Part shown: piece by piece, positions 31,029 through 62,724 of the stretch
Layout of the letters: each line of letters starts with the position of its first letter
Numbering within the stretch: the stretch's first letter is position 1
Translations under genes and position numbers: made by a program
Assembly: GCF_964213995.1 (NCBI RefSeq)
Contig: NW_027590144.1
Location: 868,001 to 932,000 of the forward strand
Source: Mustelus asterias
Lineage: Eukaryota
Direction: 5' to 3'
DNA: 64,000 bases
The notes under the pieces: generated by a model
The model's database searches: none
The model's input: only the letters and a program-made list of their open reading frames with translations
What the model was told of the DNA's origin: nothing

Positions 31029-31468
31029 TTCTTTAAGCTTCCTCATGCAGGGTGAGGGAAATCTGCGTGATTTCAGCTTGTTGCTGAACATTATCCGAAT
31101 CTCGATGTTGCAGCCATCTTATCTTTGCTCTGACCTCGGCTCAAATGTTACTTCAAAATCAGAAATGCTGAATGTTATGACGCAAATTTTACAAAATTGT
31201 GTAAATTCTCTAAGGTAATTTGAATTATCTCAAAAATGCATTTGAGATTAACATTCATTTAATGTCTTAAACTGACTTAATGCAAATCTTTCGTAGAATT
31301 TAACTTAAAATAGTCGGCTTCTGTTGAAAAACAATTAGATAACATTAACTTCTCCAGAGAAGCTGACTAAAGTTCGTCAGCATTTATCTCAATCGGTCTA
31401 AAGTTATAAAGTCAACTCTCTTATCGAAAGTAACATGGAATTTGTGAACATAGTTTAAAAGTTTACGC

Positions 31469-37488: not shown

Positions 37489-40367
37489 CTAGACCACTCT
37501 TTTGTATCCCTCCATTCCCATTCCGTTCATATAGCTGTCTAGATAAGTCTTAAACGTTCCCAGTGTGTCCGCCTCCACCACCTTGCCCGGCAACACATTC
37601 CAGGCCCCCACCACCCTCTGTGTAAAATATGTCCTTCTGATATCTGTGTTAAACCTCCCCCCCCTTCACCTTGAACCTATGACCCCTCGTGAACATCACC
37701 ACCGACCCGGGGAAAAGCTTCCCACCGTTCACCCTATCTATGCCTTTCATAATTTTATACACCTCTATTAAGTCTCCCCTCATCCTCCGTCTTTCCAAGG
37801 AGAACAACCCCAGTTTCCCCAATCTCTCCTCATAACCAAGCCCCTCCATACCAGGCAACATCCTGGTAAACCTCCTCTGTACTCTCTCCAAAGCCTCCAC
37901 GTCCTTCTGGTAGTGTGGCGACCAGAACTGGACGCAGTATTCCAAATGCGGCCGAACCAACGTTCGATACATCTGCAACATCAGACCCCAACTCTTATAC
38001 TCTATTCCCCGTCCTATAAAGGCAAGCATGCCATATGCCTTCTTCACCACCTTCTCCACCTGTGACGTCACCTTCAAAGATCTGTGGACTTGCACACCCA
38101 GGTCCCTCTGCGTCTCTACACCCTTTATGGTTCTTCCATTTATCGTGTAGCTCCTCCCTACATTATTCCCACCAAAATGCATCACTTCGCATTTATCAAG
38201 ATTGAACTCCATCTGCCATTTCCTTGCCCAAATTTCCAGCCTATCTATATCCTTCTGTAGCCTCTGACAATGTTCCTCACTATCTGCAAGTCCTGCCAGT
38301 TTTGTGTCGTCCGCAAACTTACTGATCACCCCAGTTACTCCTTCTTCCAGATCATTTATATAAATCACAAACAGCAGAGGTCCCAATACAGAGCCCTGCG
38401 GTACACTACTAGTCACAGGCCTCCAGCCGGAAAAAGACCCTTCCACTACCACCCTCTGTCTTCTATGACCAAGCCAGTTCTCCACCCATCTAGCCACCTC
38501 CCCCTTTATCCCATGGGATCCAACCTTTTTTAATAGCCTACCATGAGGGACTTTGTCAAACGCTTTACTAAAGTCCATACAGACAACATCCACGGCCCTT
38601 CCTTCGTCAACCATTTTGGTCACTTCTTCAAAAAACACCACCAGGTTAGTGAGGCATGACCTCCTTCTCTCAAAACCATGCTGACTATCGTTAATGAGTT
38701 TATTCCTTTCTAAATGCACATACATCCTATCTCTAAGAATCTTCTCCAACAACTTCCCCACCACGGACGTCAAGCTCACCGGCCTATAATTACCCGGGTT
38801 ATCCTTCCTGCCCTTCTTAAATAACGGGACCACATTGGCTATCCTCCAATCCTCTGGGACCTCACCTGTGTCCAGTGACGAGACGAAGATTTGCGTCAGA
38901 GGCCCAACGATTTCACCTCTCGTCTCCCTGAGCAGCCTTGGATAGATTCCATCAGGCCCTGGGGATTTGTCAGTCTTTATATTCTCTAACAAACCTAACA
39001 CTTCCTCCTTTGTAATGGAGATTTTCTCCAACGGTTCAACACTCCCCCCAGAGACACTCCCATTCAACACATCCCTCTCCGTTGTGAATACCGACGCAAA
39101 GTATTCATTTAGGATCTCCCCTACTTCTTTGGGCTCCAAGCATAAGTCCCCACTTTTGTCCCTGAGAGGTCCGATTTTTTCCCTAACAACCCTTTTGTTT
39201 CTAACGTATGAATAAAATGCCTTGGGATTCTCCTTAATCCTGTCTGCCAAGAACATTTCGTGACCTCTTTTTGCTCTTCTAATTCCCCGTTTGAGTACTT
39301 TCCTACTTTCATTGTACTCCTCCAGAGCTCCCTCCGTTTTTAGCTGCTTGGACCGAACATACGCCTCTCTTTTCTTTTTGACCAGTCCCTCAATTTCCCT
39401 GGTTATCCACGGTTCTCAAATCCTACCCTTCCTATCCTTCTTTTTTACAGGCACATGCTTGTCCTGTAGCCCTAACAACCGTTCCTTAAAATACTGCCAC
39501 ATACCAGATGTGGATTTACCCTCAAACAGCCTCTCCCAATCAAGAGCTGCCAATTTCTGCCTGATCCCAATAAAGTTAGCCTTCCCCCAATCCAACACCT
39601 TACCCTTGGGACACCACTCATCCTTTTCCATCACTATCCTAAAGCTAACAGAATTGTGGTCACTATTTGCCACATGTTCCCCAACCAAAACTTTGAAGAC
39701 CTGACCGGGCTCATTCCCCAGTACCAGGTCCAGTATAGCCCCCTCTCTAGTCGGGCTGTCTACATATTGTTCCAACGAACCCTCCTGTACACATTTTACA
39801 AATTCCTCCCCATCCAGAGTCCCTGCCCTCAGCGATTTCCAGTCTATACCGGGGAAATTGAAGTCTCCCACTACAACAACCCTATATTTCCTGCACCTAT
39901 CCAGTATCTCCTGACATATCCATTCTTCCACTTCCCTTGGGCTGTTGGGGGGCCTGTAGTACACCCCCAACATAGTGACTGCGCCTTTCCTGTTTCTAAG
40001 CTCCACCCAGAGTGACTCGTTACACGACTCCTCTGAATTGTCCTCCCTCTGCACCGCTGTAATATGCTCTCCAACTAATACCGCTACTCCCTCTTTTGGC
40101 CCCTCCTCTGTCTCGCCTAAAACACTTGTACCCTGGAATATTCAGCTGCCAGTCCTGCCCCTCTTTCAACCAAGTCTCTGTCACCGCAACCACATCCAAA
40201 TTCCTCGCGCGCATTAAGGCCCCAAGTTCGTCTGTCTTACCTGCTACGCTCCTTGCATTGAAGTATAAGCACTCCAGACCTCCAGGCTCAGTGAGGTCGT
40301 CCTCCCCCAGAGTGCTCTTCTTCTTTGCCAGCCTTGTCCCAGCCCCAAGCTCGTCCCCAGCCACCAC
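37489..40367 (-). pseudogene. CR1 ORF2 (APE endonuclease-reverse transcriptase), three lesions
   Basis: Frameshift ~40090, in-frame TGA 39416-39418, homopolymer frameshift ~37660; otherwise continuous. Confidence 0.9.
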
Positions 40368-40408
40368 ACTTATAGACCTAATAGTTTGATCCCCACCCCC
40401 CTGCCATA

Positions 40409-41401
40409 CTAGTTTAAACCCCCCCGAACTGCACTAGCAAAGCTCCCAGCCAGGATATTTGTGCCCTTCCAACTTAGTTGTGACCCCTCCCTCTTGTACA
40501 GGTGCCATCCTCTCCTGAAAACCTCCCATTGATCTATGAAAATAAAGCCCTCCCTCCTGGACCAGTCCTTTAGCCAGGCATTCGTTTGTGCCAACTCCCT
40601 ATTCTTAGCCTCACTGGCACGAGGCATTGGGAGCAGCCCAGAGATGGCCACCCTAGTGACCCTACTTTTTAACCTATTTCCCAACTCCCTGAATTGCTCT
40701 CTTAGGACCCCTCTACTCTTCCTATCTACGTCATTTCCACCAATGTGTATAATGACATCTGTTTCTTTATCTTCCCCTTTTAATATGCCTCCTATCCGCT
40801 CGGAGACATCCGTGACCCCAGCACCAGGTAGGCAGACTACCATCCTGGAGTCCCGTTCGGCCCCGCAGAATCGCCTGTCTGTGCCTCTAGCTGATGCATC
40901 CCCCACCACTATCGCTCTCCTAACCCCTCTCTTCCCTTTCCGGGCCACAGAGCCTGACTGTGTGCCAGTGACCTGGTCACTGTGTCTTACCCCTGGAGAG
41001 GCACACTCCTCCACACTATCTAAAACAATATACCTGTTTTGGAGTGGGACAACCACAGGTGACCCCTCTTCTAACTTTTCACTCCCCTCCCCTCTCACAC
41101 TTGTCACGAAGCCCTTCCTATTTTGAGAGACCACCACTGGAGTCCTCCCTTGTACTTTACCCTTCTGCCCTTTACTCCTCCTAACTGTGACCCACGTGTC
41201 ATTCTCCCGATGCCCCGGTGTAACTACTTGCCTATAACTGCTGTCAATTTTTCTCCCATTTTCCCTGACTAGCCTAAGGTCAGCGATCTGCAGCTCCAGT
41301 TCCCTGACACGGTCCCTCAAGAGCTGCAGTTCCACGCACCTGGCACATATGTGAACCTGTGGGAAGCTAGGTGTTTGCAAGAACTCCCACATCGGAAGCA
41401 C
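40409..41401 (-). CDS. CR1 ORF1p: zinc finger/leucine zipper plus SGNH esterase domain
   Basis: CARC..LRDRVRELELQIADL; AIVVGDAS, CLPGA and IHIGGND blocks typical of CR1 ORF1 esterase. Confidence 0.85.
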   Translation of the reverse strand: MLPMWEFLQTPSFPQVHICARCVELQLLRDRVRELELQIADLRLVRENGRKIDSSYRQVVTPGHRENDTWVTVRRSKGQKGKVQGRTPVVVSQNRKGFVTSVRGEGSEKLEEGSPVVVPLQNRYIVLDSVEECASPGVRHSDQVTGTQSGSVARKGKRGVRRAIVVGDASARGTDRRFCGAERDSRMVVCLPGAGVTDVSERIGGILKGEDKETDVIIHIGGNDVDRKSRGVLREQFRELGNRLKSRVTRVAISGLLPMPRASEAKNRELAQTNAWLKDWSRREGFIFIDQWEVFRRGWHLYKREGSQLSWKGTNILAGSFASAVRGGLN

Positions 41402-41588
41402 TGAACTGGCCGATCACTCATACCTGCCCTTGTCCTTTATAGGGATGGGTAAAAAAATAACTAGCCTTGCCTCGCCCTTTCAGCCCAAGCCCTGTGAGCC
41501 AAAGCCCTTATAGTGCACACTCTGCTACCCACTCACTCCACTGCCCGCTCCCGACGCTGCCCGCTGCACCCGGATTTTTATGCTCCAG

Positions 41589-43622: not shown

Positions 43623-44292
43623 TCTCCTGCTGGAAAGGAATGAACCTATCACCATTGGGGCCGGATATTACTCAACATCGTCTGAACTCTGAACTGAAAC
43701 AATTGAGCTTTAACGCATTGAGTTCCCTCAGACATTTGCTGGAGGAACGCTTTTTAATTTGGAAGTCCAAGATAAGTTGATACATCAGGTTGAAAGTAAC
43801 GAGTGTGTTCTTGAATTAAGTGGCATGGGTTCTCAATCTAACCATGCGAACCTGCAGCAACAAAGTGGAGTTCAGCATTGTAGTCAGGCCGATTGAGGGC
43901 GATATGCTGTCATTTGTAGTGCTTGTAAAGGACCCCGGTCCGAAATCGGACAGGAGAATACATTAAGATTTTTCATGTCGGGTGAGAGAAATCTGAATGA
44001 TTTCAGTTTGTTGCTGAACATTATCCGAATCTCGATTCATGTTATCTTTGCTTGACGTCGGCCTCAAATGCTTCCTGTAAAATAAATGCTGAATACTTTC
44101 GCGCACTGACAGGAAAGAAATGTTTCTATTTTGACAGCATGCGCACATCAGCATTTCGTTCAGTCGACAACAGAATTTAAAGGGTTAATAGGTGCAGACT
44201 AACGTAGTTAATCGCCATCTGAAACATGTCTAATGGTAGTCTGTGCTCTAAAAGACAGATACAAGTGAAACTGCACGTGGGCATTGTCAGCT

Positions 44293-44365
44293 GTTCCTGA
44301 AGTGTAGTTGTTATCACATTCGCCTCACACGCGAAAAGTCCCCGGTTCGAAACCAGGCAGAAACA
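44293..44365 (+). pseudogene. tRNA-Val(CAC), likely pseudogene
   Basis: Anticodon arm and B box intact; U8>A, D-loop GG>TG, acceptor and T-stem mismatches. Confidence 0.8.
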
Positions 44366-45365
44366 CTGTTGGATCGTTGTCATTAAGCAAGAGCGAAGTC
44401 TGCATGATGTAAGTTCATAGCTCAACCTCATGCGAATCCGATATCACGGTCATGTTATATTGACTTTGATCTCGGCCTCAAAAGCATTTCGGAAAGTTAG
44501 AAATGCTGTCTTTGAGGACGCAGGGAATAAAGAACTCCATTGTTTGTACACATATTCGCAACTCGTGCAGTCCACAAATTAATTTAATGGGTTTAGATGT
44601 GCAGACTGACGTAGTTAATCACCATCTGAAATATATCGAATAGTATTGTGTGCTCATAAAGACAGACACAATTGAAAGTCAAACTGAACTGGAGGAAATG
44701 GGCGCATTTCACAGAAGCACCTTTGTAAAATTGCGCTTCACAGTAAAGAAATAGTTAAAACGACTCAGACAAATGTGGAGATCGAGATTCAGTGCGGACC
44801 TCCTGGACTTCCGATAGATGGACGAGATTTAGGCGCCAGAATACTTCACAGACAGACGAAAGAGGATTCAAGTACATTTTATTTTCTTTAAAGGATGAAT
44901 GTGGTCAATCTCAAATAAATATCATGGCATGGGCATTACGCAGTGACTCTATTTCTTTCGTTGGTCAGACATGTTTGCAAGACAATGTTGTATATTTCAG
45001 AGAAATTCAATTCAGAATGAGGACATCTGTTTTAAATAAACGTATTGAAATTAAATGTTGAATAACTACAAATATTTGATATAACTGTTTGAAATTATTT
45101 GACGGAAGATGAGAATGATGTATGAATGATTGAACAGAAGTCATTGCCACCTGAGACATTTGCCAGACGAACGCTTTTTAATTTTGAAGTTCAAGATAAG
45201 TTGAGATATCAGGTTGAAAGTAACGGATTTGTTCTTCCATTAAGTGACATGGACCCTCAATGTGACCATGAGAACCTGCAGCAACACAATTTACTTCAAC
45301 ATTGTAGTCAGGCCAATTGGCGGCGTGGCGCAGACAGGCAGATTTGCTCCAGCATACTTCGAGCT

Positions 45366-45438
45366 GTTTCTGTAGTGTCGTGGTTATCACGTTCGCCCAA
45401 CACGCGCAAAGTCCCCTGTCGGAAACCGGGCAGAAATA
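45366..45438 (+). pseudogene. tRNA-Val(AAC) pseudogene
   Basis: Val body with T loop destroyed (tgtcggaaa). Confidence 0.8.
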
Positions 45439-46594
45439 TTCACTAAGCTTTCTCATGTCGGGTAAGGGTAAATTGCTTGATTACAGTTTGTTGCTCAACA
45501 TTATCCGAATTTCGATGTCAAAGGCATGTTATCATTGCTCTGACATCACCCTCAAATGCTTTCTGTGAAATAAGAAACGCTTTTTTATTTGACGCACTGA
45601 CAGGAAATGTCGATTTTGACACCGAGCACTTATTCGCTTCTCGTTCAGTCTACAACAGAATTTAATGGGTTTACAGGTGCAGACTAATATGGTTAATCGC
45701 CATCTGAAATATCTGACAGTAGTGTATGCTCAAAGAGACAGATACAAGTGATACTGTAAGTGAACGAGAGGAAATGGCGCACATTTCACAGAAGATCTAT
45801 TTTAAAATCGTTTTTCATCACTGAGAAACAGGAAAAGCCACTCAGACAGATGAGGGAATCGAGGCTCAGTGCGGATCGACTGGACTTTCCGGTAAAGGTC
45901 TGGAAGTTATGCGCATGAATGTTTCACGCCCATAATAAAAAAGGCTCAACTGTCACGAGCAGATAATGCTTGATTTTCCTCCATTTAAATGGAGTTGACT
46001 TTGTTTACAAGCTGAAGATAGTCAATCTCAAATTTGCGATCTGTATTGCCCGGTGATTCGCTTTGTTCTGTTGGTCATTTATGTTTGCAATTCAGTGATG
46101 TTCAATTTCAGAGATATTCAATTCATAATGAAGACATATGTGTTAAATAATACATTGATACTAAATATTGAAACAAATACAAATATGAGTACGATTGTAC
46201 AATGAGCTTTGATAAAGTGTCATCTGGTCTCGAAACGTCCGCCCTTTTCACTCCTTACAGGTGCTGCCAGACATTGTGAGATTTTGCAGCATTTTCTCTT
46301 TTCTCATCCGCAGTAATTTGTTTTCATTACTGAGTACAATTGATTGAGATTATTCGAAGAAAGAGGAAAATGATGCATTAACGAATGGGCAGAAATCATT
46401 GCCCCCTTAGATATTTGCCAGAAGAACGATTTTGAATTTTGATGTACGGAATAAGTCGTACAATCAGATTGAAAGTGACGGTTATCTTCCTGAATTCAGT
46501 CACATGGGCTCTCCGTCTCACCACCGGAACCTGCAGCATCACAGCGGAGTTGAACATTGCAGCCAGGCAGATTAGCTCCAATACTATTCCAGCT

Positions 46595-46667
46595 GTTTCT
46601 GTAGTGTAGTGGTTATCGCATTCGCTTAACACGCGAAAAGTCACCGGTTCGAAACCAGGCAGAAACA
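46595..46667 (+). tRNA. tRNA-Val(AAC), one of the best-preserved copies, possibly a pseudogene
   Basis: Acceptor GTTTCTG/CAGAAAC and anticodon arm pair; A and B boxes intact; two T-stem mismatches. Confidence 0.7.
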
Positions 46668-46882
46668 TTCATTAAGCTTCCTCATGTTGTGTAAGGGAAA
46701 ATTGCTCGATTCCAGTTTGATACTCATCATTGTCCGAGTCTCGATGTTAAAGACATTTTCTCATTGCTCTGACATCACCCTCAAATGCTTTCTGTGAAAT
46801 AAGAAACTTTTTGTTTTGACGCACTTACAGGAAATTTCGATTTTGACACCGAGCACTTATTCGCATCTCGTTCAGTCTCCAA

Positions 46883-47958
46883 CAGAATTTAATGGGTTTA
46901 TAGGTGCAGACTAATATGGTTCGTCACCATCTGAAATATCTGACAGCAGGGTGTGCTCAAAAAGACAGATACAAGTGAGACTCAAGCTTTCTCATGTGGG
47001 AGGGAAAATTGCTTGTTTTCAGTTGTTGCTCATCATTATCCGAGCCTCGATGTGAAAGGCATGTTATCATTAACAGTGTAGTGGTTGTCACGTTCACCTA
47101 ACACGCGGAAAGTTCCGGTTCGAAACCTGGCAGAAACATAGGGCAGCACAGTGGCACAGTAGTTAAGAGTGCTGCCTCGAAGCGCCAGGGTCCTAGATCC
47201 AATTCCCGATTTGGATCACTGTCTGTGCGGAGTCTGCATCTTCTCCCCGTGTCTGTGTGGGTTTCCTCCGGGTGCTCCGGTTTCCTCCCACAGTCTGAAA
47301 GACATGCTGGCATCACCCTCAAATGCTTTCTGTGAAATAAAAAACGCTTTTTTTTGACGCACTGACAGGAAATTTCGATTTTGACACCGAGCACATGTTC
47401 GCATCTCGTTCAGTCTACAGCAGAATTTAATGGGTTTATAGGTGCAGACTAATATGGTTCGTCACCATCTGAAATATCTGACAGCAGGGTGTGCTCAAAA
47501 AGACAGATACAAGTGAGACTCAAGCTTTCTCATGTGGGAGGGAAAATTGCTTGTTTTCAGTTGTTGCTCATCATTATCCGAGCCTCGATGTGAAAGGCAT
47601 GTTATCATTAACAGTGTAGTGGTTGTCACGTTCACCTAACACGCGGAAAGTTCCGGTTCGAAACCTGGCAGAAACATAGGGCAGCACAGTGGCACAGTAG
47701 TTAAGAGTGCTGCCTCGAAGCGCCAGGGTCCTAGATCCAATTCCCGATTTGGATCACTGTCTGTGCGGAGTCTGCATCTTCTCCCCGTGTCTGTGTGGGT
47801 TTCCTCCGGGTGCTCCGGTTTCCTCCCACAGTCTGAAAGACATGCTGGCATCACCCTCAAATGCTTTCTGTGAAATAAAAAACGCTTTTTTTTGACGCAC
47901 TGACAGGAAATTTCGATTTTGACACCGAGCACATGTTCGCATCTCGTTCAGTCTGCAG
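46883..47958 (+). repeat. Near-perfect 538-bp tandem duplication containing a 5'-truncated tRNA-Val and a SINE head
   Basis: Identical ORF translations offset by 538 (47098/47636, 47169/47707). Val remnants at 47073-47138 and 47611-47676; SINE heads at 47141-47310 and 47679-47848. Confidence 0.92.
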
Positions 47959-48495
47959 CAGAATTTAATGGGTTTATAGGTGCAGACTAATATGGTTAAT
48001 CACCATCTGAAATATCTGACAGTAGTGTGTGCTCAAAAAGTCAGATACAAGTCATACTGCAAGTGAACTAGAGGAAATGGCGCACATTTCACACAAGATC
48101 TATTTTTAAATCGTTTTGCATCACTGAGAAACAGGAAAAGCCATTCAGACAGATGAGGGAAGCGAGATTCAGTGCGGATCTACAGGACTTTCCGGTTAAG
48201 GTCCGGAAGTTATGCGCATGAATGTTTCACGCCCATAATAAAACAAGCTCAAGTGTTACGAACAGATAATTCTTGATTTTTCTCCACTTAAATGGAGTTG
48301 ACTTTGTTTAAAAGCTGACGATAGTCAATCTCAAAATTGCGGTCTGTATTACCCGGTGATTCGCTTCCTACTGTTGGTCAGTTATGTTTGCAATTCAGTG
48401 ATGTTCAATTTCAGAGATATTCAATTCATAATGAAGACATATGTGTTAAATAATGCATTGATACTAAATAGTGAAACAAATACTGAGTACAATTG

Positions 48496-48625
48496 TACAA
48501 TGAGCTTTGATAAAGTGTCATCTGGACTCGAAACGTCCGCCCTTTTCACTCCTTACAGATGCTGTCAGACATTGTGAGATTTTGCAGCATTTTCTCTTTT
48601 CTCATCCGCAGTAATTTGCTTTTAT
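48496..48625 (+). mobile_element. 130-bp Penelope-associated short insertion with 15-bp TSD (also at ~46197-46326, ~49718-49847, ~50501-50630)
   Basis: tactgagtacaattg occurs at 48481-48495 and 48626-48640. The insert contains a degenerate hammerhead (ttgataaagtgtcatctggactcgaaacgtc). Confidence 0.7.
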
Positions 48626-48892
48626 TACTGAGTACAATTGATTGAGATGATTCGAAGAAAGCTGAAAATGATGCATTAACGAATGGGCAGAAACCATTGC
48701 TCCCTTAGATATTTGCCAGACGAACGATTTTAAATTATGATGTTCGGGATAAGTCGTACAATCAGATTGAAAGTAACGGTTATCTTCCTGAATTCAGTGA
48801 CATGGGCTCTCAGTCTCACCATTGGAACCTGCAGCAACACAGCGTAGTTGAACATTGCAGACAGGCAGATTTGCTGCAGGTGTGTTTAAGCT

Positions 48893-48965
48893 GTTTCTGT
48901 AGTGTAGTGGCTATCACGTTCACCTAACACGCGAAAAGTCCCCGGTTCGAAACCAAGCAGAAACA
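48893..48965 (+). pseudogene. tRNA-Val(AAC), likely pseudogene
   Basis: A and B boxes intact; anticodon-stem and T-stem mismatches. Confidence 0.78.
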
Positions 48966-50079
48966 TTCATTAAGCTTCCTCGTGTCGTGCAAGGGGAAAT
49001 TGCTTGATTCTAGTTTGGTGCTCATCATTATCCGAGCCTCGATGTGAACGGCATGTTATCATTGCTCTGACATCACCCTCAAATGCTTTCTGTGGAAGAA
49101 GAAACGTTTGTTTTGACGCACTGACAGGAAATTTCGATTTTGACACCGAGCACTTGTTCGCATCTCGTTCAGTCTACAACAGAATTTTATGGGTTTATAG
49201 GTGCAGACTAATATGATTAATCACCATCTGAAATATCTGATAGTAGTATGTGCTCAAAAAGACAGACACAAGTGATACTGCAAGTGAACTAGGGGAAATG
49301 GCGCACATTTCACAGAACATCTATTTTTAAATCCTTTTTCATCACTGAGAAACAGGAAAAGCCACTCAGACAGATGAGGGAATCGAGACTCAGTGCGGAT
49401 CTACAGGACTTTCCGGGTAAGGTCCGGAAGTTATGCGCATGAATGTTTCACGCCCATAATAAAAAAAGGCTCAAGTGTCACGAACAGATAATTTTTGATT
49501 TTTCTCCATTTAAATGGAGTTGACTTTGTTTAAAAGTTGACGATAGTCAATCTCAAATTTGCGATCTGTATTACCCGGTGATTCGATTCGTTCTGTTGGG
49601 CAGTTATGTTTGCAATTCAGTGATGTTCAATTTCAGAGATATTCAATTTATAATCAAGACATATGTGTTAAATAATGCATCGATACTAAATAGTGAAACA
49701 AATACTGAGTACAATTGTACAATGAGCTTTGATAAAGTGTCACCTGGACTCGAAACGTCCGCCCTTTGCACTCCTTACAGGTGCTGTCAGACATTGGGAG
49801 ATTTTGCAGCATTTTCTCTTTTCTCATCCGCAGTAATTTGCTTTTATTACTGAGTACAATTGATTGAGATTGTTCGAAGAAAGATGAAAATGATGCACTA
49901 ATGAATGGGCTGAAATTATTGCTCCCTTAGATATTTGCCAGACGAACTTTAAATTTTGATGTTCGGGATAAGTCGTACAATCAGATTGAAAGTAACGGTT
50001 ATCTTCCTGAATTCAGTGACATGGTCTCTCAGTCTCACCATCGGAACCTGCAGCAACACAGCGTAGCTGTGTTCAATCT

Positions 50080-50152
50080 GCTTCTGTAGTGTGGTGGTTA
50101 TCACGTTCGCCGAACACGCGAAAGGTCCCCGGTTCGAAACCAGGCAGGAACA
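50080..50152 (+). pseudogene. tRNA-Val(AAC), likely pseudogene
   Basis: U33>G, A14>G and acceptor mismatches. Confidence 0.78.
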
Positions 50153-50897
50153 TTCATTAAACTTCCTCATGTCGTGCAAGGGAAAATTGCTGGATTCCAG
50201 ATTGGTGTTTATCATTTATGCGCATGAACGTTTCACGCCCATTATAAAAAAGGCTCAAGAGTCACGAACAGATAACTCTTGAATTTCCTCCATTAAAATG
50301 GAGTTGACTTTTTTAAAAGCTGACGATAGTCAATCTCAAATTTGCGGTCAGTTTTATCCGAGGATACGCTTCGTTCTGTTGGGCAGTTTTGTTTGCAATT
50401 CAGTGATGTTCAATTTCAGAGATATTCAATTCAAAATGAAGACATATGTGTTAAATAATGCATTGATATTAAATATTGAAACAGATTCTGAGTACAATTG
50501 TACAATGAGCTTTGATAAAGTTTCATCTGGACTCGAAACGTCCGCCCTTTTCACTCCTTACAGGTGCTGGCAGACATTGTGAGATTTTGCAGCATTTTCT
50601 CTTTTCTCATCCGCAGTAATTTGCTTTTATTACTGAGGGCAATTGATTGAGATTATTCGATGAAAGCTGAAAATGATGCATTAATGAATGGGCAGAAACC
50701 ATTGCTCCCTTAGATATTTGCCAGCCGAACGCTTTTAAATTTTGATGTTCGGGATAAGTCGTGCAATCAGATTGAAAGTAACGGTTATCTTCCTGAATTC
50801 AGTGACATGGGCTCTCAGTCTCACCATCGGAACCTGCAGCATCACAGCGTAGTTGAACATTGCGGACAGGCAGATTTGCTCTGACGTGCTCGGCGCT

Positions 50898-50971
50898 GTT
50901 TCTATAGTGTAGTGGTTATCACGTTAGCTTCACCTGCAAAACGTTTCCTTGTTCGAAACGGGGCAGAAACA
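50898..50971 (+). pseudogene. tRNA-Val(CAC) pseudogene
   Basis: Val 5' half intact; anticodon stem and T stem degenerate. Confidence 0.75.
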
Positions 50972-51427
50972 TTCGTTAAGCTTTCACATGTCGGGTAAGG
51001 GAAAATTGCTTGTTCTCAGTTGAATGCTCAACATTATCGGAACTTCAATGTTAAAGGCATGTTTTCATTTCTCTGACATCACCCTCAAATGCTTCTGTGT
51101 AATAAGAAGCGCTTTTTATGACGCACTGACAGGAAATTTCGATTATGTCACCGAGGACATCTTCGCATCTCGTTCAGTCTACAACAGAATTTAATGGGTT
51201 TATAGGTGCAGACTAATATGTTTAATCACCATCTGAAATATCTGATAGTAGTGTGCGCTCAAAAAGACAGATACAAGTGATACTCTAAGTCAACTAGAGG
51301 AAATGGCGCACATTTCACAGAAGATTCTTTTTAAAAATCGTTTTTCATCACTAAGAAACAGGAAAAGCCACTCAGACAGATGAGGGAATCGAGACTCAGT
51401 GCGGATCTACTGGACTTTCCTGTAAAC

Positions 51428-51803
51428 ATTGAATTTCGTGAATTTTGTTGTTTCAACTGTGGATGTCGTATCTGCAACGTTCACATTTGCATCACTTCCA
51501 GTGTTTTCCTCAGCTGAGATTCCAGACTCTGTTGTCTCAGTAGCAGATGCACCAGGGTGTGGTTGTTTTGGACTTTGGTGATCACCTTGGGTTTGTCGAT
51601 CCTTATCTGTTTCTGGAGTAAAGTAACTGTCAACGTTTGGTAATTTTTTGAGTTGCTCTTCAAGCGAGTGCTTTCTTTTTCTTTTCTGGTATCTGCTCTT
51701 AAATGTTCTCTTCATTGTAAACCTTCTGAAATTTTGTGAGGCCCCTGCGGATTGTGAGGCCCTAAGCTGTAGCTTATTTAGCTTATGCCTAAATCCGGCA
51801 CTG
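51428..51803 (-). mobile_element. hAT-type DNA transposon 5' end (TIR plus transposase N-terminus)
   Basis: The minus strand starts cagtgccggatttagg (hAT-like TIR) and has subterminal gggcctcaca repeats. The frame from 51715 reads MKRTFKSRYQKRKRK..LKKLPNVDSYF. Confidence 0.6.
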
Positions 51804-51967
51804 GGATCACCGTTACTCATCTCTGAAAATAGACAACAGACACGCAGCGTGTTAGAAGGAGCAACAACAGCGGAATAATGGCCCAGAGATGGAAATGGGC
51901 AATGAATATGGTGATTGGCGGATTTCAGACAAAGGTTCAAAATGGCCGCCCTGTGATCAGGACAATA

Positions 51968-52131
51968 TGTGGAGATGCCGGCGTTGGACTGGGGTAAACA
52001 CAGTAAGAAGTTTAACAACACCAGGTTAAAGTCCAACAGGTTTATTTGGTAGCTTTTGTGGCTGAGAAAAGGTGTGGCTTTTGCTACCAAATAAACCTGT
52101 TGGACTTTAACCTGGTGTTGTTAAACTTATT
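51968..52131. mobile_element. Inverted Penelope termini with 12-bp TSD, forming a 46-bp perfect inverted repeat
   Basis: atcaggacaata at 51956-51967 and 52132-52143; arms at 52008-52053 and 52083-52128. Confidence 0.85.
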
Positions 52132-52357
52132 ATCAGGACAATAACCAGAGACAGACAGAGCTTCACCCCCATAGTTCCAGTCTGAACACCAGAAACAGAG
52201 GCAGTGATCACTGTCTGCATAATATCTGGAAATGGAGAAGTTGAAACAGTCAGTGGACTGTTATGAGGTCGAAAGTGACTCCGTCTCTCCGCCCATTTTT
52301 ACATCTTCAAACAGTCGCTTCCTCGAGAAGGGAATCGTGATTTTTCAGAAGTGATCA

Positions 52358-52380
52358 GAGAGCGCCCTCCCGTGGACAGC
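52358..52380 (-). promoter_or_regulatory. Candidate CTCF-binding motif
   Basis: Reverse complement tgtccacgggagggcgctct is close to the CTCF consensus. Confidence 0.4.
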
Positions 52381-52447
52381 AATGCCGCACATTGGAAACA
52401 GATACACGCACGACCACCTGCAAAGACTGACACATATCCAGGTAATG

Positions 52448-52680
52448 GAATCATAGAATCATAGAATTTGTACAGTACAGAAAAATGCCATTCGGCCCAC
52501 CGATCTGTACCGATCGCAAGCCTCCCAGGCCCTATTCCCGTAACCTCATACATTTACTCCGCTAATTCCCCTGACACTAGGGTCAATTTAGCAGAGCCAA
52601 TCAAACTAACCTGCACATCTTTGGACCGTGGGAGGAAACCGGAGGACCCGAGGAAACCCACACAGACACGGGAAGAGCAG
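52448..52680 (-). mobile_element. V-SINE, 5'-truncated
   Basis: gaatcatagaatcatag tail and V-core. Confidence 0.8.
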
Positions 52681-53303
52681 ATACACACACGGCCACGTGC
52701 AAAGATCAACACGTGCAAGGATATATAACCATATAGATACATCCCCAGACACTGTCATCAATTCTAACGTCCCTCGTTATAAATCCAGAATTATTCTGTA
52801 GATTTCTGACACATTAGTCTGAGTTGCTAACTATGAAAATACATGAATAACTCCAACTCCGTGTTCACTAGAAGCCTCGTATACCGCACAGAATCAACAA
52901 AAGCATAGACACAGGGACAAGTAAACACAGTGATCGATTCTCAAACTGATCGACTCAAACATCGACACACAGACAATCACTGAGGAAGATAAACAAACAG
53001 ATTAACACAGCCACTGACACACTCAAGAGAAGTGCACTCATTGACAATCTCAAAAGCGTACTAGTTCCAGAGTAACTTTCTGAACTGGAATTCCCCAGGG
53101 TCATGTCAGTGCGGCAATATCGTGTTAGATATTCATTGCGATGGAACTGTCCATTTTAACAACAGGAACAGCCAGAAATCTATTTCTCATCAATTGTGAT
53201 CATTAATTGATGACTCAACAGTGGACACTTTTGGAGAATAAGCAATAATGGATGTATTTATGTTTACAGCCAAACACATTCTGGATGTGTCCATACCATG
53301 TTT

Positions 53304-53588
53304 AAAGTTTATTTATTAATGTCACAAGTAGGATTATATATACTGCAATAAAGTTACTGTGAAAATCCCCTCGTCGCCATACTCCGCCGCCTGTTCGGGT
53401 ACACTAAGGGAGAAATTTACCATGGCAATGCACCTAACCAGCACGTCTTTCAGACTGTGGGAGGAAACTGGATCAAATCCACACAGACACAGGAAGAACG
53501 TGCAAACTCCACTCAGACCCAAGCCAGGAATCGAACCCGAATCCCTGGCGCTGTGAGGCAGCAGTGTGCTACTGTGCCATCGTGCCCC
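53304..53588 (-). mobile_element. V-SINE, same tail type as 3790-4070
   Basis: tRNA head, V-core and aataaataaacttt tail on the minus strand. Confidence 0.82.
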
Positions 53589-54199
53589 CCCACCCCCCCC
53601 CCCGTGTGAGGTCGCTGTAGGTAAGACAGATACCCCTCCCACCCTCGAGGTTGCCAGGTCGGATGTTCGGGACACAGGAGGACAACACAAGGACACTGCT
53701 TCAGGTACAGGTGATTAATTCTCCTCTGTTATATTCCATACTCTGTGGAAAGTTGTGGAGTTAATATTATATATAATTCAGAAATAATGAGGAGATGCTT
53801 TATCCGATTAAACCCGTTTTGTAAATTCGATTTGAAATCAATTGCATAAATAAACATATGTTTACATTGAAAACTATACTGGGAAGCTATATCCAATACT
53901 TCATGCCATTGGCTCAGTGAAACGTTGTTACTTAAAGCAAACTGTACATGGATTCCACAGAAACTCCTTTTTCAAATGAGGATTGGACAATGACTTGAAA
54001 GGGAGAAAAATCAGCTTCATGGAATGAGAGGAGGAAATTGAAATGAGAGCAAAGAACAGTACAGCACAGGAACAGGCCCTTCGGCCCACCAAGCCCGCAC
54101 CGACACGTCAGTTTGGTAGCTCGTCATAAAATAACTGGCATAGGCATGGTGGGTCGAAGGGCGTCTTATTGTTCTTTGCCATTGTCAACCATTTTCAAT

Positions 54200-55560
54200 C
54201 ATTACAACAATCTGAGGTCACGATCTGCTTCAAGAAGACGACCATCATCCCGCTACCTAAGAAAAATCAAGCAGCATGCCTTAATAACTATCGGCCGGTG
54301 TCTCTGACATCCATCATTATGAAGTGCTTTGAAAGGTTTGTCATGGCACGAGTCAATTCCAGCCTCCCGTACTACCTGGATCCACTAAAGTTGCGTACCA
54401 CTGCAACAGGTCCACAGCTGACGGCATTTCCCTGGCCTTGCACTCAACCCTGGATCACCTAGATAACAAGGACACACTCCTATTTATTGACTAAAGCTCA
54501 GCCTTCAACACTATTATTCCCACGAAACTCATCTCCAAACTCCGTGGCCTGGGCCTCGGCACTTCCTCTGTGACTGGATCCTGAACTTCCTAACTCACAG
54601 GCCACAATGTGTAAGGATAGACAACAACACCTCCGCCACAATCATCCTCAACACCAGTACCCCACAAGGCTGTTTTCTCAGCTCCCTACTATACTCCTTA
54701 TCTACCTGTGACAGTGTGACCAAATTCGATTTTCAAGTTTGCTGACGACACCACTATAGTGGGTCGGATCTCAAACAATGATGAGACAGAGTACAAGAAT
54801 GAGGTGGAGAATCCGGTGAACAGGTGCAGTAACAATAATCTCTCTCTCAATGTCAACAAAACGAAGTAGATTGTCATCGAATTCAGGAAGTGTAAAGGAG
54901 AACATGCCCCTGTCTACATCAACGGGGACGAAGTAGAAAGGGTCGAGAGCTTCAAGTTTTTAGGTGTCCAGACCACCAACTACCTGTCCTAGTCCCCACC
55001 CCTCCGCCCCCCCCCCCCCCCCGCCATGCCCACCAACACCTCTATTTCCTCAGAAGACTATGGACATTTGGCACGTCAGCTCCGACTCTCACCAACTTTT
55101 ACAGATGTCGCATAGACAGCATTCTTTCTGGTTGTGTCACAGCTTGGCATGGCTCCTGCTCTGCCCAAGACTGCAACGAACTACAAACCAGCCTCCCATC
55201 CATTGACGCTGTCTACACTTCCTGCTGCCTCGGCAAAGCGGCCAGCATAATTAAGGACACCACGTCCCCGGACATTCTCTCTTTCACCTTCTTCCTTCTG
55301 GAAAATGATACAAAAGTCTGAGGTCATGTCCCAACTGACTCAAGAATAGCTTCTTCCTTGCTGCTGTCAGACTTTTGAATGGAATTACCTTGCATTAAGC
55401 TGATCTTTCTCTGCACCCTAGCTATGACCGTAACACTGCATTCTGCAGACTCTCATTTCCTTCTCTATGAACGGTATGTTTTGTCTGTATAGCGCGCAAG
55501 AAACAATACTTTTCACTGTATGTTTATACATGTGACAATAATAAATCAAATCAAATCAAT
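54200..55560 (+). mobile_element. Rex1/Babar (L2-group) non-LTR retrotransposon 3' fragment
   Basis: FKKTTIIPLPKK..LNNYRPVSLTSIIMKCFERFV, SAFNTI, PQGC and KFADDTT motifs; (aatca)n tail. Confidence 0.8.
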
Positions 55561-55648
55561 TTCATTCTTGGATCAATATGTCTACAGCAGTCCCAATGAG
55601 TGTTGCAACATTTCAAGAGAGTCCTATTGTGTCCAACGGACGCCAGCA

Positions 55649-55721
55649 GTTTCTGTAGTGTCATGGTGGTTGCATTCGCCTCACACACGAAAGGTTCGTA
55701 GTTCAAAACCATGCCGAAATA
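55649..55721 (+). pseudogene. Outlying tRNA-Val(CAC) pseudogene with partial array unit (to ~55965)
   Basis: Val body plus the downstream array spacer. Confidence 0.72.
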
Positions 55722-56377
55722 TTATTAAAATTTGTTCATTAAGGGTGAGGGAAGTTTACATGATTGGAATTTGTTGTTGAACATTATCTGAAACTCAATA
55801 TTAATGTTATCTTTGCGCTGACCTCGGCCTCAAAATCTTACAGCAAAATCAGAGATCTTGTATTTTTATGACGCAATGAGAGGAAATAGATGTTGCTGTT
55901 TTGACACCGTGGACATATCAGCAACTCATTCAGACCACAACAGAATTTAATGGGTTTGTAGGTGCAGGTCCGCCGAGGCAGCATGGTGTGTGACCATCCG
56001 GTGGTGTTAATTGACCTTCCCCCAAACGGTGAACACATTCTTGGTTCCGATTACATGAATAAATGTAATTTTTCATTTGATCCAGCTAATCGATGCTTTT
56101 GGCAGAAAGTGCCCACGTTCCTGGCAGATAATTTAAATTATGGGGGAAATCCGCATGAGTGTCAGGTTATAGGCTATAGGTTATAACTTATAGCCGCAAA
56201 GGACCCCACAGGTCCGTTTATCCCGAAACAACAGGATACATGGTCAGGGACAAAACAGATAGCCACCCAATGGACAGACCCAGCCATGAGAATTTATGTC
56301 GGCGGTTATCCAAAATAGTGGATGGGACCAGAATCACAGGATGTGGCATTTATGTGGAACATGAAAGGGACAGCCAC

Positions 56378-57186
56378 GAATGGGTAACTAACAGAAAGCA
56401 AAGAGTGGGGGTAAATGGGTGTTTTTCTGGTTGGCGATCAGGGACAGGTGGTGTGCCTCAGGGATCAGCGTTGGGACCGCAATTGTTTACCATTTACATG
56501 GATGATTTGGAGTTGGGGAACAAGTGTAATTGCAGATGACACTCAGATGGGTGGAAGAGCAAAGTGTGCAGAGGACGCTGAAAGTTTGCAAAGGGATATA
56601 GGTAATCCAAGTGAGTGGGCGAGGGTCTGGCAGATGGAGTACAATGTTGGTAAACGTGAGGTCATCCATTTTGGTAGGAATAACAGCAAAATGGACTATT
56701 ATTTAAATGGTAAAAAAATGCAGCATGCTTCTGTGCAGAGGGACCTGGGTGTCCTTGTACAGGAATCTCAAGGAGATGGTTTGCAGGTGCAACACGTAAT
56801 TAAGAAGGCAAATGGAATTTTGTTCTTCATTGCTCGAGGGATAGAGTTTAAAAACACCGAGATTATGTTGCAACTGTATAAAGTGCTGCTGAGGCCACAA
56901 CTGGAGTACTGTGTACAGTTTTGGTCTCTTATTTGAGAAAGGATATACTGGATCTGGAGAAGGTGCAGAGGAGATTCACTAGGTTGATTCCGGCGTTGAC
57001 AGGGTTGGCTTCTGAGGAGAGACTGAGTGGACTGGGGTTATACTCATTGGAATTCAGAAGAATGAGGGGAGATCTTAGAGAAACATATAAGATTATGAAG
57101 GGAATCGATAAGAGAGAAGCAGGGAAGTTGTTTCCACCGGCGAGTGAAACTAGAACTAGGGGGCATAGCCTCAAAATAAGGGGAAG
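56378..57186 (+). mobile_element. CR1 fragment inserted in the ERV RNase H region
   Basis: [22 protein letters not shown] and RPQLEYCVQFWS. Confidence 0.9.
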
Positions 57187-57669
57187 CCAACATACACTCC
57201 GATAGCATGTAAGCGTGCAACAGCCTGACTGAGTTCCTACCGTTATGGGAAGCCAGAGTCTTCGTCTCTGCGGACAGAAGGGCCTATCGTTATCCTGCCT
57301 ATTGAAATATGTTCTGTAGGCCACCGAAGGGCGAACATATGGAATTATTAAGGTTTGAAGCCACCACAGGACCTCCCCACCTGGCAACTGTAAGGCCGAT
57401 GCATTAGCCAAGGCCAGTGCCCGTACGGGACAATTTTGGCAGCCACCTGTAGGAGAGCAAGTAAACGCTGTGGCCATTTGGCAAATTAATATAGACGACC
57501 TGGTCCAGGCACAGCGCACTGACAGTTCCCAAAAACAAATTTTAGAAGGAGTCTACCCAACCCCATATGAGAAATGGAAGGACAAAATACAGATTGAGGA
57601 TGGTTTGATATTAAAGGCAGGCACATACGTAATCCCTACCCTAGACAGAAATCAGCTTATCTACCAGTA

Positions 57670-58680
57670 GCATGGCAGACATGTCCCAGGGCATAGAGAC
57701 AACAATCGAGCGATTAAAATAATTATGTTGGTGGCCCGAACTGCACAACGACATTATATCGACAATTGTTTAATTTGTTCCCAGAATAACCCCAATAGAT
57801 ATGCAGAAAAGCGGGAGCTAAGGCACACATACCCAGTAGAAGGCCTTTGGACAAATCTCCAAATTGATTATATCGGCCCACTACCATCATGTAGGAACGG
57901 ATTTAAATACGTCCTAGCAATGATGGACACTCAAACCAAATGGGTTCCCACAAAATCCAACACAGCTAAGGCCACCGCAAAGATATTAGCCCAGCAGGTA
58001 TTTATACGATGGGGTCTTCCCCACAGCATAGAGTCCGACCAAGGGACACATTTCACAGGGCAGGTGATGCAGAACGTTATGGCTATGTTTGGCATCAAGC
58101 AGAAATTCCATATTGCCTACCATCCACAATCCAGCGGATTCGTAGAGCGCATGAACCGAACGCTAAAAGGGATCATTAGAAAGACAGTGCAGCAAAACAA
58201 CGCAACATGGGATACAGTACTTCCCTTTGCCCTCATGATTGTACGCAACACCATTTCCAGTTCTACTGGGTTCACCCCCCTTACATTAATGACTGGCCGA
58301 CCTATGAGGGGAGCTGAATACTTACTGTGGTTTGACTTAACTGAGCCTGCTATCACAGCGCTCACCCATGAGAAAGCCGTCCAGCAGATAACCGAAAACA
58401 TTAAAGCAGCCGAGTGAGCCGCGGCTGTCCGATTAGGAGTTAAAAAAGAAACAGAGCAAGGAATATTTCAATAAAAGGGTACACCCGGTAGAATATACGG
58501 CTGGCCAGCAGGTAATGATTTCCCTCTCCAACCCCAGTTCTTTCATGTCCCCGAGATATGCAGGTCCGCACACCATCACCGACAAATTAAGCCCCTCCCT
58601 CAGTGTATAAGGTCCTGATCGCCAACAGGAAAACCGGTTGGTTCCACGTCAATCAACTGAAAGCTTACGGGACTCAGAAT
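57670..58680 (+). pseudogene. Retroviral-type integrase (HHCC, DDE core, GPY/F-like C-terminus), frameshifted
   Basis: CLIC; WTNLQIDYIGPLP; IESDQGTHFTG; YHPQSSGFVERMNRTLK; PRYAGPHTI; WFHVNQLK. Confidence 0.9.
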
Positions 58681-60129
58681 AATCACTTCCACCATCTCAC
58701 ATTCGAGATAGGGGAAGATGACAGCCTCACCGGAAATATATTTCCACAGACACGTTCTCATCCACTTTCAGGTTCAGACCAGACGCTTACCCCTACCACG
58801 CTACAGCCCAGAGCCTCGTTCACACCTGAAGTGCCTCGAGGGGTACTGATCGACTTACACATAACAGGAGACTTGCGCACCCTCGAGGGCTGGCGCGACT
58901 CGCTAGATATCGGCCATTGAAGCATTATGGATTCTCCCATAAACATAAGCCTTAATAGCCACCGATGTAACAGGGAGGCCCTGACTAAACGACACCGGGT
59001 TATTTGATGGGGACACCCGGTGCTGCATCCCCCACCTGGATAAGGGACCAGACACGTACATTAATTAGAATGGAAGACGACGATAAAGGACTCCCGAACC
59101 CTGATCCAAACGCACACCCCACAGTGCAGTCCAACAAACAGACACGGGTATGGAGGCCAGGTGAGAAGATAATGATGGAGTCCCATGAGACAAATGATTC
59201 AGAAGATGAGCCTCTGTTGGGCAATTTGTTAACGGAAATGCTGAATGAATGGATCTAAGATGCTCCAAATAGTGAAATTCAGCCTACAGTCCAGACCAAT
59301 GCAAGGTACAAGAATATCTGATGGAAGCAGCCATTTAAAACCCCGCAACCTGCAGGTCCACCGTGACCGTCCGACAGTAAAATGTCCACGGTTAAGTCCA
59401 ACCGACTCATTTCCCATACCATTTTTATACTGCTCGTACGATTAACCGGGTTATTTACACAATCCGATGCTCTTTGGCCACTTTTCTCTCGTTAAGAGAT
59501 CATTAAGGCAACAATGCAAATCTTTGAGGCAGCTATTCTCAATTTTAACAGAATTGAGGCGGCTGTGCTAAATTTTAAAATCGTCAAGCCGACTGGGCTA
59601 CATTTTCAACTCTTAGAGGCACTTGTGCTAAATTTCAAATGCGTTCTGCCTTCAAATTCTAAGACACTCATGGAATGGACACCTCTTCACGTCATTACAG
59701 ACCGACTGCAGTGCTATTCGAATCCCTATGACTAATGGTGACTGCTACGAGAATAAAACAGGCTGCCTTGATTTTGCTGGCCAATTAAACAAGCTCATTT
59801 CCAACCACTCCACGACTCGTCCATTTATCGATCTGAACAAAAACGTTGCTCGGTAATGGTTCACAATTAGAATAAAGATTATGACACGTAAGTGACAATT
59901 GATATATCTGGGTCCTCCTGACCGCACCATTGTCGATAGTGTTCAAAACAAAAAGGGGGGGGGGGCATTGACAGTTTAAATATATGCATATACATCAAAT
60001 ATTGGATGCGATAACAGCAGAAATTACATTGATCTCCTCAAGACAACGTCGGACGGCGACAGAGATGCAACCTACGATCTACTCATCGGACTCATCATCG
60101 GGATAAGCACGCAGGACACTCCAAGCAAG

Positions 60130-61842
60130 GTGAACTTGTGGTATCCCAGTTATTTATGGTTTGCCCCACATGACGCTGGGGAATGTGAGGATGGCGTGTT
60201 ATGGGTGCATCCCGATAAGAGTATAATGTTTGGGTGTAACAACTAGCGGCTGATACACACAAAAACAAATGGCTGTTCAGCTGAATGTTATCTGAGTGTC
60301 ACCGTCGCAGGGGATTGGTGGGGATTTTAAAATAATGGATGCCCTGAAATTGGATGTCTGGCCAACAGCCCAGAAAAAGGATTAGAGCTCAGGCAGCAGT
60401 GCCCCGGGACACTCATGGAGAGGAACTTTGCATTGTACGAAATAAGAACTGGGCCGAAGCCAACCCCAGACCCATCCCACTCGATTTGTCCTGGAGCCAC
60501 CCCGGACCACAGAATGGATTGATACTAAAACACACAGGGGAAACCCTGTATGACAACATCCACCACAAATTGGTACCTGTGGTGGTGGATATAGCTGGGA
60601 CCCAACTGCTAGAGTGGTGCTCTCCCCAAATTAAGAGATTAACATCCACTTGACTCGCAGACTGTTAGGATGGAAGAGAAGAATGGATGAAAGGCAGGAA
60701 AGATCCAAGAGGGAGTTAGTCAATGACATGGCCACAGCATACGGGGCAGGGATAGCAAACAACAATGCCCGATTGAATTAGCCGACCTGGACAGTAAAAT
60801 TAGGATTCTGACCCAACAGGTTAAACAGACACGAAATTCCATTAATGAGGACAATCGGCAAGATGCTGAAGGGGAACTGACTGGGAACGCAGCCAGCAGC
60901 CACATGGTCGCTGTATTAGAAGGACACGTCAAGACAATCAATCAAATTATCAGGCAAAAATTAGAGGACGGTGACATAATGTCATAATAAATAAAGTAAT
61001 AATTCATAATGTCGGGACCGGGTCTATGAAGTGGAAAATACAAGGACTATCCATGAGGATATCTGGATAGGGTACGACGGCACTTTATCGTACGCAGTGG
61101 AGAAAGAAGGCAGACTCATAGGCACTACTCTGGACAGGTGTCGGCAAACTGACGAAATAATCGCATACCCGTTCCTAGTTTACTTAAATGAGCATGCACT
61201 GTGTGGCTTCAGAATAAACACTAGCCTAAATTGCTCACTGGAAGCTTGTAGCCTGGACACAGACATAACTCGAGTGGCTAACAAGGGAGTAGGGACATAC
61301 TGTCTCACCACCTCCCTGAAATAATATCAGTATGGCGCGACACGTAGTAACATTACGAACACTCCATTCTGCATCAAACCAGACCTATCAGCCACGGTGG
61401 GCCTCATTCAACTCATAGACATTCATAAGAGCGAGAGGGTAGATTTGAACGCCACTGACGAGCTCCGACAGGCTCTAGGGGAATACCATGAGAAATATGA
61501 CACAAGCCTTAAACCCCTACCGGAGGAGTTGAAGCAGATTCGGGTAAAATTGGCTACAGCCCACAGAACCTTCACCAAAGTAATACAGCAGACCCAAGAG
61601 GTGAAAAGGGGAATTAAATAAATTAAAGTCACCTCTTGCTGGGATGACGTTTGGAACTGGGGCTCAAACATCAAATCCACCCATTTGTTCACATTATGTC
61701 AGACATGGCGGTATTACTGATTTTGTTCACCCTGGTATATCTAATCATCCTCACAGTCCAATTCAGCCGATGGAGAAAGGGGATCACCCGGAGGCAGGAC
61801 GTTGGGTCCGCTCTTGAACCACGGTCCCCTCTAATTCAGTAG
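60130..61842 (+). pseudogene. env-like class I fusion glycoprotein remnant
   Basis: Furin site RSKR 60701-60712; Ala/Gly-rich peptide ELVNDMATAYGAGIA; heptad; Cys-rich block 61031-61380; second heptad; WDDVWNW; TM MAVLLILFTLVYLIILTV; short tail. Confidence 0.7.
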
Positions 61843-62724
61843 AGCAATGTTTACAGGAAGCCTGCCATTTTGCGATTTGTATTAATGAACCGTTGGAAAT
61901 CCGACTATCAAAATGTGCCTCAGATCTGCGATACCTTATTGGAATGTTTGTTTGAATGTTGGTTTATAATTAGCTTATTGTAATAATGGTGTTTAGAATA
62001 TGTGATTGCTTGTATTTGTAGAGTGTTGCTCTCTGTAGTTTCTGGAATGTAAATATGTTGTAGAAATGTGTCATTGCTGTGCATGCCAATGCCTGGGCCT
62101 TGCTTGACTGTTGAGTGACTGTGGAATTCCTGACAGATACTGGTCCTGAGTTTGTGATCCATCACGCTTCGCATTCAGGATCAAAGAGGGGACTGTGGCC
62201 AAACGGCCCACCTAAAATGGCGATTTATCAAGCACTCCAGGACAATTGGGCAAGAACTAAAACAGCAGGCTGCAGCCGAAAAGACGCTGCAATATCAACT
62301 GAAGCCACATACAACAACAAAGCCCATTGAACTTGCGCCGTGCATGTAAGGAAACATGCCCAGTTTCTTCACAGTGCTGTTTTCAATCAGAAATGGGTGG
62401 AGACAGAGTCTCACTTTGCTCTTTTGCAGAGTCCAATTGGAGATTAACACTTTGTTGACCTGAGGTAAATTTGCTGGGAAGCTATGTCCTCTTTAGGAGC
62501 CCCTTCTACTTGAAGTAGAATGTTGCCAGCTTCACCAATCTTTCCAAAAGTCTGACCATTCTCATCATAAGCTCCGCTGGCTCACCCCATCTTTCCCTCC
62601 CTCAAAAACCAATCACGAACTAAACAATATCGTCTCATGCCATTTTGCAACATCTTCAAGTCGCTTCATCTCTTCAAAGCCAGCACCCAGTGCTACACCA
62701 GGCCAAGCTGCCACTTTCAACCCT

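Follow-up and report, generated by a model that had tools for sequence, protein, structure and literature searches.

F-type envelope (Env) proteins on retrovirus-like elements are already known from lokiretroviruses and foamy viruses. In PMC7947760, lokiretroviruses (Loki) are described as vertebrate LTR elements with dual RNase H domains and an F-like Env that has an RXKR cleavage site, a fusion peptide, a coiled coil and a transmembrane (TM) segment. The F-like Env of foamy viruses (PMC11468914; PDB 8rm1) has a class Ib core, and that paper sets out the class Ib plan in three forms: F as the minimal scaffold, foamy Env with a receptor domain between its subunits, and coronavirus spike with one at its N-terminus. 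Many Ty3/gypsy elements also carry an F-like Env, described as ancient and seldom recombined, and epsilonretrovirus Env has been noted as structurally distinct. Ovex1 ORF3 is a long env-like protein that, like the remnant described below, lacks ISD and CX6CC.

Four scenarios for the origin of retroviral env are listed in PMC7947760. PMC9040795 prefers independent origins, because Loki Env and canonical retroviral Env showed no similarity. A literature search with most subscription journals outside its reach returned no report of an F-like Env in SnRV-like (snakehead retrovirus-like) or shark endogenous retroviruses (ERVs).

Here we describe an env remnant in a window of 64,000 nt from Mustelus asterias (NW_027590144.1, positions 868,001-932,000); all coordinates below count within this window. 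Its best explanation, which we consider probable, is that it is the dead env of an SnRV-like class III (clade Huo) ERV, encoding a class Ib Env of the F/foamy/Loki fold with a putative receptor-binding N-terminal domain of ~370 residues, and that this F-type Env was more likely held by basal retroviruses for a long time than recently captured. Set against the systems above, the carrier lineage, the N-terminal module and a conserved shark gene are likely to be the new points.

The env remnant and its provirus

Translation by eye and a motif scan place the remnant at ~59382-61839 on the + strand, beyond the 60130..61842 of the initial annotation. There is no boundary at 60130; env probably begins at ~59382, and the N-terminal piece, previously called short, has ~370 further codons upstream of it (59382-60500). 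The motifs that had been named, from that piece and RSKR through the small-residue peptide, the heptads and the Cys-rich domain to the Trp-rich segment and the TM, are all present on the + strand and in order.

The F2-equivalent part (60501..60700, +), which is 37-42% identical to the homologues P0099, P0106 and P0105, holds a conserved strand motif, PGPQNG...VVVDI (60501-60593), a cysteine and a helix ahead of the cleavage site. Between the strand motif and the furin site RSKR (60701-60712) there are just 36 codons; P0099 and P0105 have RRKR or RTKR in place of RSKR. A small-residue, fusion-peptide-like stretch (~60713-60778) is followed by the first heptad, LDSKIRILTQQVKQT (60787-60831); the region containing both (60713..60984) is frame-shifted and aligns by tblastn with P0105 residues 63-94 and 137-157. 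At a deletion junction (60985..61018), ~55-80 codons have been lost, as judged from anchor spacing: two motifs that lie about 88-113 residues apart in all four homologues measured are 31 codons apart here. The large Cys-rich post-cleavage subunit proposed earlier lacks this part, near 61000. Beyond the junction, 61019..61690 is 72% identical to P0107 and has two in-frame stops. It contains the equivalent of Cys-rich domain I/II, with CRQ (61139), LCGF (61199), LNCSLEAC (61226), TYCLTT (61295) and FCI (61367) in order, and then the second heptad (~61450-61620) and a Trp-rich membrane-proximal segment, WDDVWNW (61640). The TM helix and a short tail lie in another frame (61672..61839; tblastn, 64% to P0107 residues 256-310), and the helix at 61708-61764 has a mean hydropathy of 2.64. 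Furin site, fusion peptide, heptad A, heptad B and TM follow one another as expected of a class Ib fusogen.

This copy of env is a broken pseudogene and cannot code for a protein. Its reading frame changes at least six times (near 59730, 60500, 60645, 60780, 61000 and 61680), and it has eight in-frame stops and the one internal deletion. As had been stated from the sequence, CX6CC and an immunosuppressive-type motif are absent; this holds for all three forward frames of 59300-61900 and for the six homologues checked. Pfam searches of window frames and homologues gave no TLV_coat or gamma-type signal, and no envelope family was assigned to any of six forward-frame translations spanning env and pol-env.

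The probable N-terminal extension (59382..60500, +), delimited by eye, has a signal-peptide-like start and ~370 codons, cysteines among them, in two frames with six stops. The signal-like stretch at 59382 lies below the hydropathy cut-off of 1.6. The extension has no Pfam match and no PDB sequence match, and tblastn detected no similarity to the ~200-aa N-terminal region of the shark homologues; it has no homologue and may instead be a separate ORF. Three short imperfect repeats (EAAILNF, EAAVLNF and EALVLNF) occur at 59523-59640 (+) in this presumed N-terminal region. The ~700 bases that separate integrase from env (58690-59380, +) have partly open frames and no Pfam match, and possibly represent a pol extension or a small accessory ORF.

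The remnant closes a decayed provirus in which a protease tail, RNase H, integrase, env and a purine tract occur in order. The 5'-most recognised piece is a protease C-terminal remnant (56025..56117, +; tblastn to P0003, E 0.004, and P0001, E 0.05), a match that is weak alone and supported by its position. The end of the tether/connection, with an HxC motif, and the start of RNase H come next (56121..56371, +; tblastn, E 0.013 for each of two pieces). Reverse transcriptase (RT) has been deleted, P0001 residues ~104-592 having no tblastn match in the window. Within RNase H lies a non-viral LINE fragment (56378..57183, +), 64-76% identical to other copies in the window, which we take to be of CR1 type from its ORF2-like translation. 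The C-terminal part of RNase H and the integrase follow, with stops and frame changes (57189..58690, +, the 3' end being approximate; Pfam rve, E 7e-11), and this stretch has 40% identity to pol homologues (E 1e-66). Downstream of env, a purine tract followed by TG (62183..62195, +) is, from its sequence, probably the PPT and the start of a 3' LTR of undefined end; blastn detected neither a second copy of this LTR start within the window nor a 5' LTR.

A dispersed repeat family of ~10-14 copies, several of them headed by tRNA-Val-like sequences, occupies 24600-31200 and 43700-55967, and one copy directly borders the provirus remnant on its 5' side. The - strand carries a long LINE, close to full length, at 37649-41413, its frames presumably being ORF1-like, endonuclease-like and RT-like. 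Farther upstream are a V-set exon (20425-20712, +) resembling a T-cell receptor alpha/delta variable segment, for which T-cell receptor alpha chains are the best single-domain natural matches, and a rhodopsin-family GPCR fragment (11932-12408, +; 7tm_1, E 2e-6) that we take to resemble the GPR139-like genes, expanded in sharks. The V-set exon points to a vertebrate host, and the number of LINEs and the GPCR fragment agree with a shark or ray genome.

Fold of the Env family

A search of 1.84 billion representatives with the piece at 61010-61699 gave 15 homologues at E <= 0.001, the best at 7e-55; word-based searches, which are insensitive, gave 2 matches and 1 match. P0107 (311 aa) is 73% identical to this Cys-rich piece, and separate env pieces match single homologues colinearly by tblastn. 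Given the 15 homologues, this close relative and the colinear matches, the env motifs are not due to chance. P0099 and P0107 are 24% identical to each other (E 4e-26).

Sequence searches said little about fold. There was no Pfam match to PF00523 (paramyxo/pneumovirus F) in the window frames or in 17 homologues, the Cys-rich piece matched only tropomyosin among PDB sequences (E 2 or worse), and a profile run against the PDB reached hPIV3 F (F0) at E 0.7, which is not significant. Since direct sequence searches gave nothing, the fold searches used models of P0099 and P0107, both of low confidence (mean pLDDT 41 and 60, respectively).

Compared with 48,161 chains, the P0107 model had six matches at Z >= 5, five of them paramyxovirus F and the sixth foamy Env. 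The best match (Z 6.8, rmsd 6.7, 148 residues aligned) is in the tool's middling range against a background of 4.9, and foamy Env, at Z 5.3, is within 1.5 Z of it. In Foldseek, all six matches of this model at E <= 0.001 were paramyxovirus F. The P0099 model had 16 PDB matches at the same threshold, of which the 15 listed are without exception paramyxo/pneumovirus F (best 2.5e-6); foamy Env was at rank 18 (E 1.2e-3). In BFVD, 14 entries matched the P0099 model at E <= 0.001: five paramyxovirus F proteins, five other negative-strand virus glycoproteins, two walleye epsilonretrovirus Env proteins, one baculovirus F and one torovirus spike. Mumps F matched at 6e-7. When P0099 residues 190-720 were used in a sequence-feature search, F-bearing clusters came out on top (scores 0.95 and 0.94), PF00523 being found on 21% and 88% of their members. 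The TM-scores of the homologue model matches were 0.1-0.3, and identity to any paramyxovirus F was 6-18%.

Because these independent routes agree, the Env of the remnant very probably had a class Ib fold. The fold is read from the homologues; the window itself displays the motifs, their order, the homology and the breaks. A domain I/II beta head resembling that of F is seen only in the homologue models, at low confidence. The low pLDDT values leave some room for the match to be an artefact of poor models and for the Env to be of another type, as does a language-model search with fragment P0094, whose look-alikes were class III-type fusogen families (PF24664, gB, rhabdovirus G) and not F. However, two different models, three search methods and the sequence-feature search converge on the same family, and the domain order and furin site suit class I, so that such an artefact is highly improbable.

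The class Ib reading agrees with the F-protein architecture that the initial annotation had proposed, since models of two homologues rank paramyxo/pneumovirus F first. The profile check it had suggested yielded nothing beyond the hPIV3 match, whereas Foldseek with homologue models favours F; a best match to retroviral TLV-coat or foamy env, which it had named as counting against the idea, did not occur, F standing ahead of foamy. Paramyxo/pneumovirus F thus provides the best structural matches and shares the order of cleavage site, fusion peptide, heptad A, Cys-rich head, heptad B and TM. The remnant differs in its low identity to F, in ~370 extra N-terminal residues and in occupying the env position of a provirus.

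The two walleye epsilonretrovirus Env proteins in BFVD (Q9WHI8 and A4GTG3) match the P0099 model at E 3e-5 and 2e-4, hinting, for a weak query model, that epsilon Env may also be class Ib. SnRV Env is not named among the 50 BFVD rows for the P0099 model.

Carrier lineage and origin of the Env

The top integrase matches carry a tether and RNase H and come, where named, from eel, frog, turtle and coelacanth. The nearest pol relatives of the window have dual RNase H domains, and their RT and RNase H motifs match, by eye, the SnRV rows in the supplement of PMC7947760, a likeness to SnRV and clade Huo. An errantivirus or other Ty3/gypsy element would be expected to show a single RNase H and a gypsy-clade pol; the relatives instead have tether and RNase H, and the window falls outside the gypsy group.

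A plain lokiretrovirus, first suggested by the integrase matches, was dropped after motif and RT checks. Comparison by eye with the supplement rows and with database pols found no Loki signature motif of integrase or RNase H in the window, and where the seven Loki rows read carry W, its integrase has Y. The HxC motif at the tether/RNase H junction occurs in 12 of 13 non-Loki pols and in none of three Loki-signature pols. These three (P0034, P0038 and P0042) have the Loki RT motif of the PMC7947760 supplement, and two of them also have the Loki integrase motif. An RT tree built from 18 relatives places the Loki-signature group (100/100) next to its sister, the canonical retroviruses (99/97), among which P0001, P0003, P0021 and P0039 are basal, apart from gypsy; constraining P0001 to join Loki was marginally rejected (p-AU 0.048). 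Trees of the window RNase H and integrase place it nearest to P0001 and outside Loki, with an AU p of 0.069 for a window+Loki clade in a tree of 14 chosen pols and no gypsy rows. One RNase H/integrase tree omitted 24 near-redundant rows of 90, and a quick tree misplaced the gypsy row P0058. Group labels in the trees were assigned from motifs, and SnRV and foamy references are absent from every tree. According to PMC7947760, RNase H and integrase domains give weak trees. Since a window+Loki clade is not rejected, these domains are weak and the trees have no SnRV or foamy reference, a class III assignment is likely rather than shown; we infer that the carrier was likely an SnRV-like (clade Huo) retrovirus.

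It is unlikely that the carrier was a divergent lokiretrovirus, which would take that group into the cartilaginous fishes, although the Env proteins have features in common. Loki Env is F-like with an RXKR site (PMC7947760), and its strand motif and cysteine spacing are similar by eye: the first strand motif, with a GP-x-G-hydrophobic start, recurs in all eight Loki Env rows read, and the C..CP..CG..C cysteine spacing of the window's Env family in each of the seven rows long enough to show it. The top integrase matches are annotated as NYNRIN-like, NYNRIN being a protein earlier named CGIN1. The integrase of Loki has been described as close to CGIN1, and the AU test did not reject a window+Loki clade. 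However, the window's pol motifs are non-Loki, with HxC at the junction, and the nearest relatives that retain RT group apart from the Loki clade. None of the eight Loki Env rows has a long domain ahead of the strand motif, such as the N-terminal extension of the remnant, and those with a visible C-terminus lack a Trp-rich segment; the remnant also has extra cysteines and a long second heptad. PMC7947760 reported Loki in 0/6 chondrichthyan genomes.

It is similarly doubtful that the provirus was a fish foamy-like ERV (clade Tu), its Env having the F fold by descent. The best solved relative of the window integrase is that of PFV (E 2.5e-21), foamy Env matches both homologue models (Z 5.3 for P0107, E 1.2e-3 for P0099), and spuma-like ERVs have been reported in sharks. 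Few basal retroviral integrases are in the PDB, which makes the PFV match weak evidence, and the relatives' RT is nearer by eye to SnRV than to ZFERV-2. Mammalian foamy Env, as described in PMC11468914, has a large receptor-binding insert before its furin site, where the remnant has 36 codons and no such insert; its extra domain is N-terminal instead.

The initial annotation had concluded that the envelope was captured from another virus class. Such a capture, from a paramyxo/pneumovirus, baculovirus or errantivirus and independent of Loki and foamy viruses, is one of several scenarios, because nothing found points to a donor, and we hold it to be improbable. Every fold search ranks paramyxovirus F above foamy Env, exchange of env is frequent among ERVs, and one env homologue matched Baculo_F at E 0.001, under the cut-off. 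Against this, identity to F is low, the PDB is rich in paramyxovirus F while no Loki or class III Env is among the listed matches, and Loki Env is by eye a closer relative. In Ty3/gypsy elements, moreover, F-type env is described as old and seldom recombined, and the F-like Env proteins of Loki and foamy viruses were already known. An ancient class Ib Env inherited among retroviruses explains the findings no less well than capture does, and it is likelier that basal retroviruses have long possessed the F-type Env than that it was captured recently. The combination of an F-type Env that has Loki-like motifs and a pol of canonical type opens the claim of independent origins to testing.

Proposed mode of action and a shark protein pair

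By analogy with other class Ib proteins, we infer the receptor role and the fusion steps as follows. The Env precursor would have entered the ER, trimerised and been cleaved by furin at RSKR. The small-residue peptide, now exposed, would then have inserted into the target membrane, and the two heptads would have zipped into a six-helix bundle, a hairpin drawing the membranes together. The Cys-rich head would have been built from both subunits. The N-terminal domain of ~370 residues probably bound a receptor, in a position like that of the S1 domains of coronavirus spike. This spike-like arrangement, with its putative receptor role, would be the simplest reading of the remnant, because the gap between strand motif and furin site is short and a long domain precedes it, as a stretch of ~200 residues also does in a pair of shark proteins.

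The pair consists of P0099, a full-length, intact protein of 739 aa from Chiloscyllium punctatum (chiPu_0008396), and P0106, an intact uncharacterized protein of 754 aa from Scyliorhinus torazame, which are 86% identical. The orders of these two sharks split well over 100 million years ago. All named env homologues are from sharks, and the two genera are assigned to different orders. Both proteins belong to the same Env family as the remnant, with 26% identity over the Cys-rich and heptad part, but unlike the remnant they are intact, and their N-terminal region, although it likewise precedes the strand motif, has no detectable similarity to the window's. Being intact and so similar across two orders of such an old split, the pair suggests a candidate domesticated F-type env in sharks.

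It may be, though we would put this at rather less than even, that the remnant and the pair represent an undescribed F-type Env family, built in spike fashion with an N-terminal receptor module, that travels on canonical class III retroviruses and shares ancestry with Loki Env, one member having been kept intact as a host gene in two orders of sharks. If so, then together with foamy and possibly epsilon Env, the F fold would be the ancestral retroviral envelope and the SU/TM type a later replacement, counter to the favoured published view that env arose independently in Loki and in canonical retroviruses. A domesticated env of the F type would also be invisible to syncytin-style screens. A 2026 survey of 36 chondrichthyan species required ISD and a C-X6-7-C motif, and because of this requirement an intact, conserved shark Env homologue would fail its filter.

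Another homologue, P0102, has an F-box domain joined to the C-terminal part of the remnant's family, and is probably a gene-prediction chimera.
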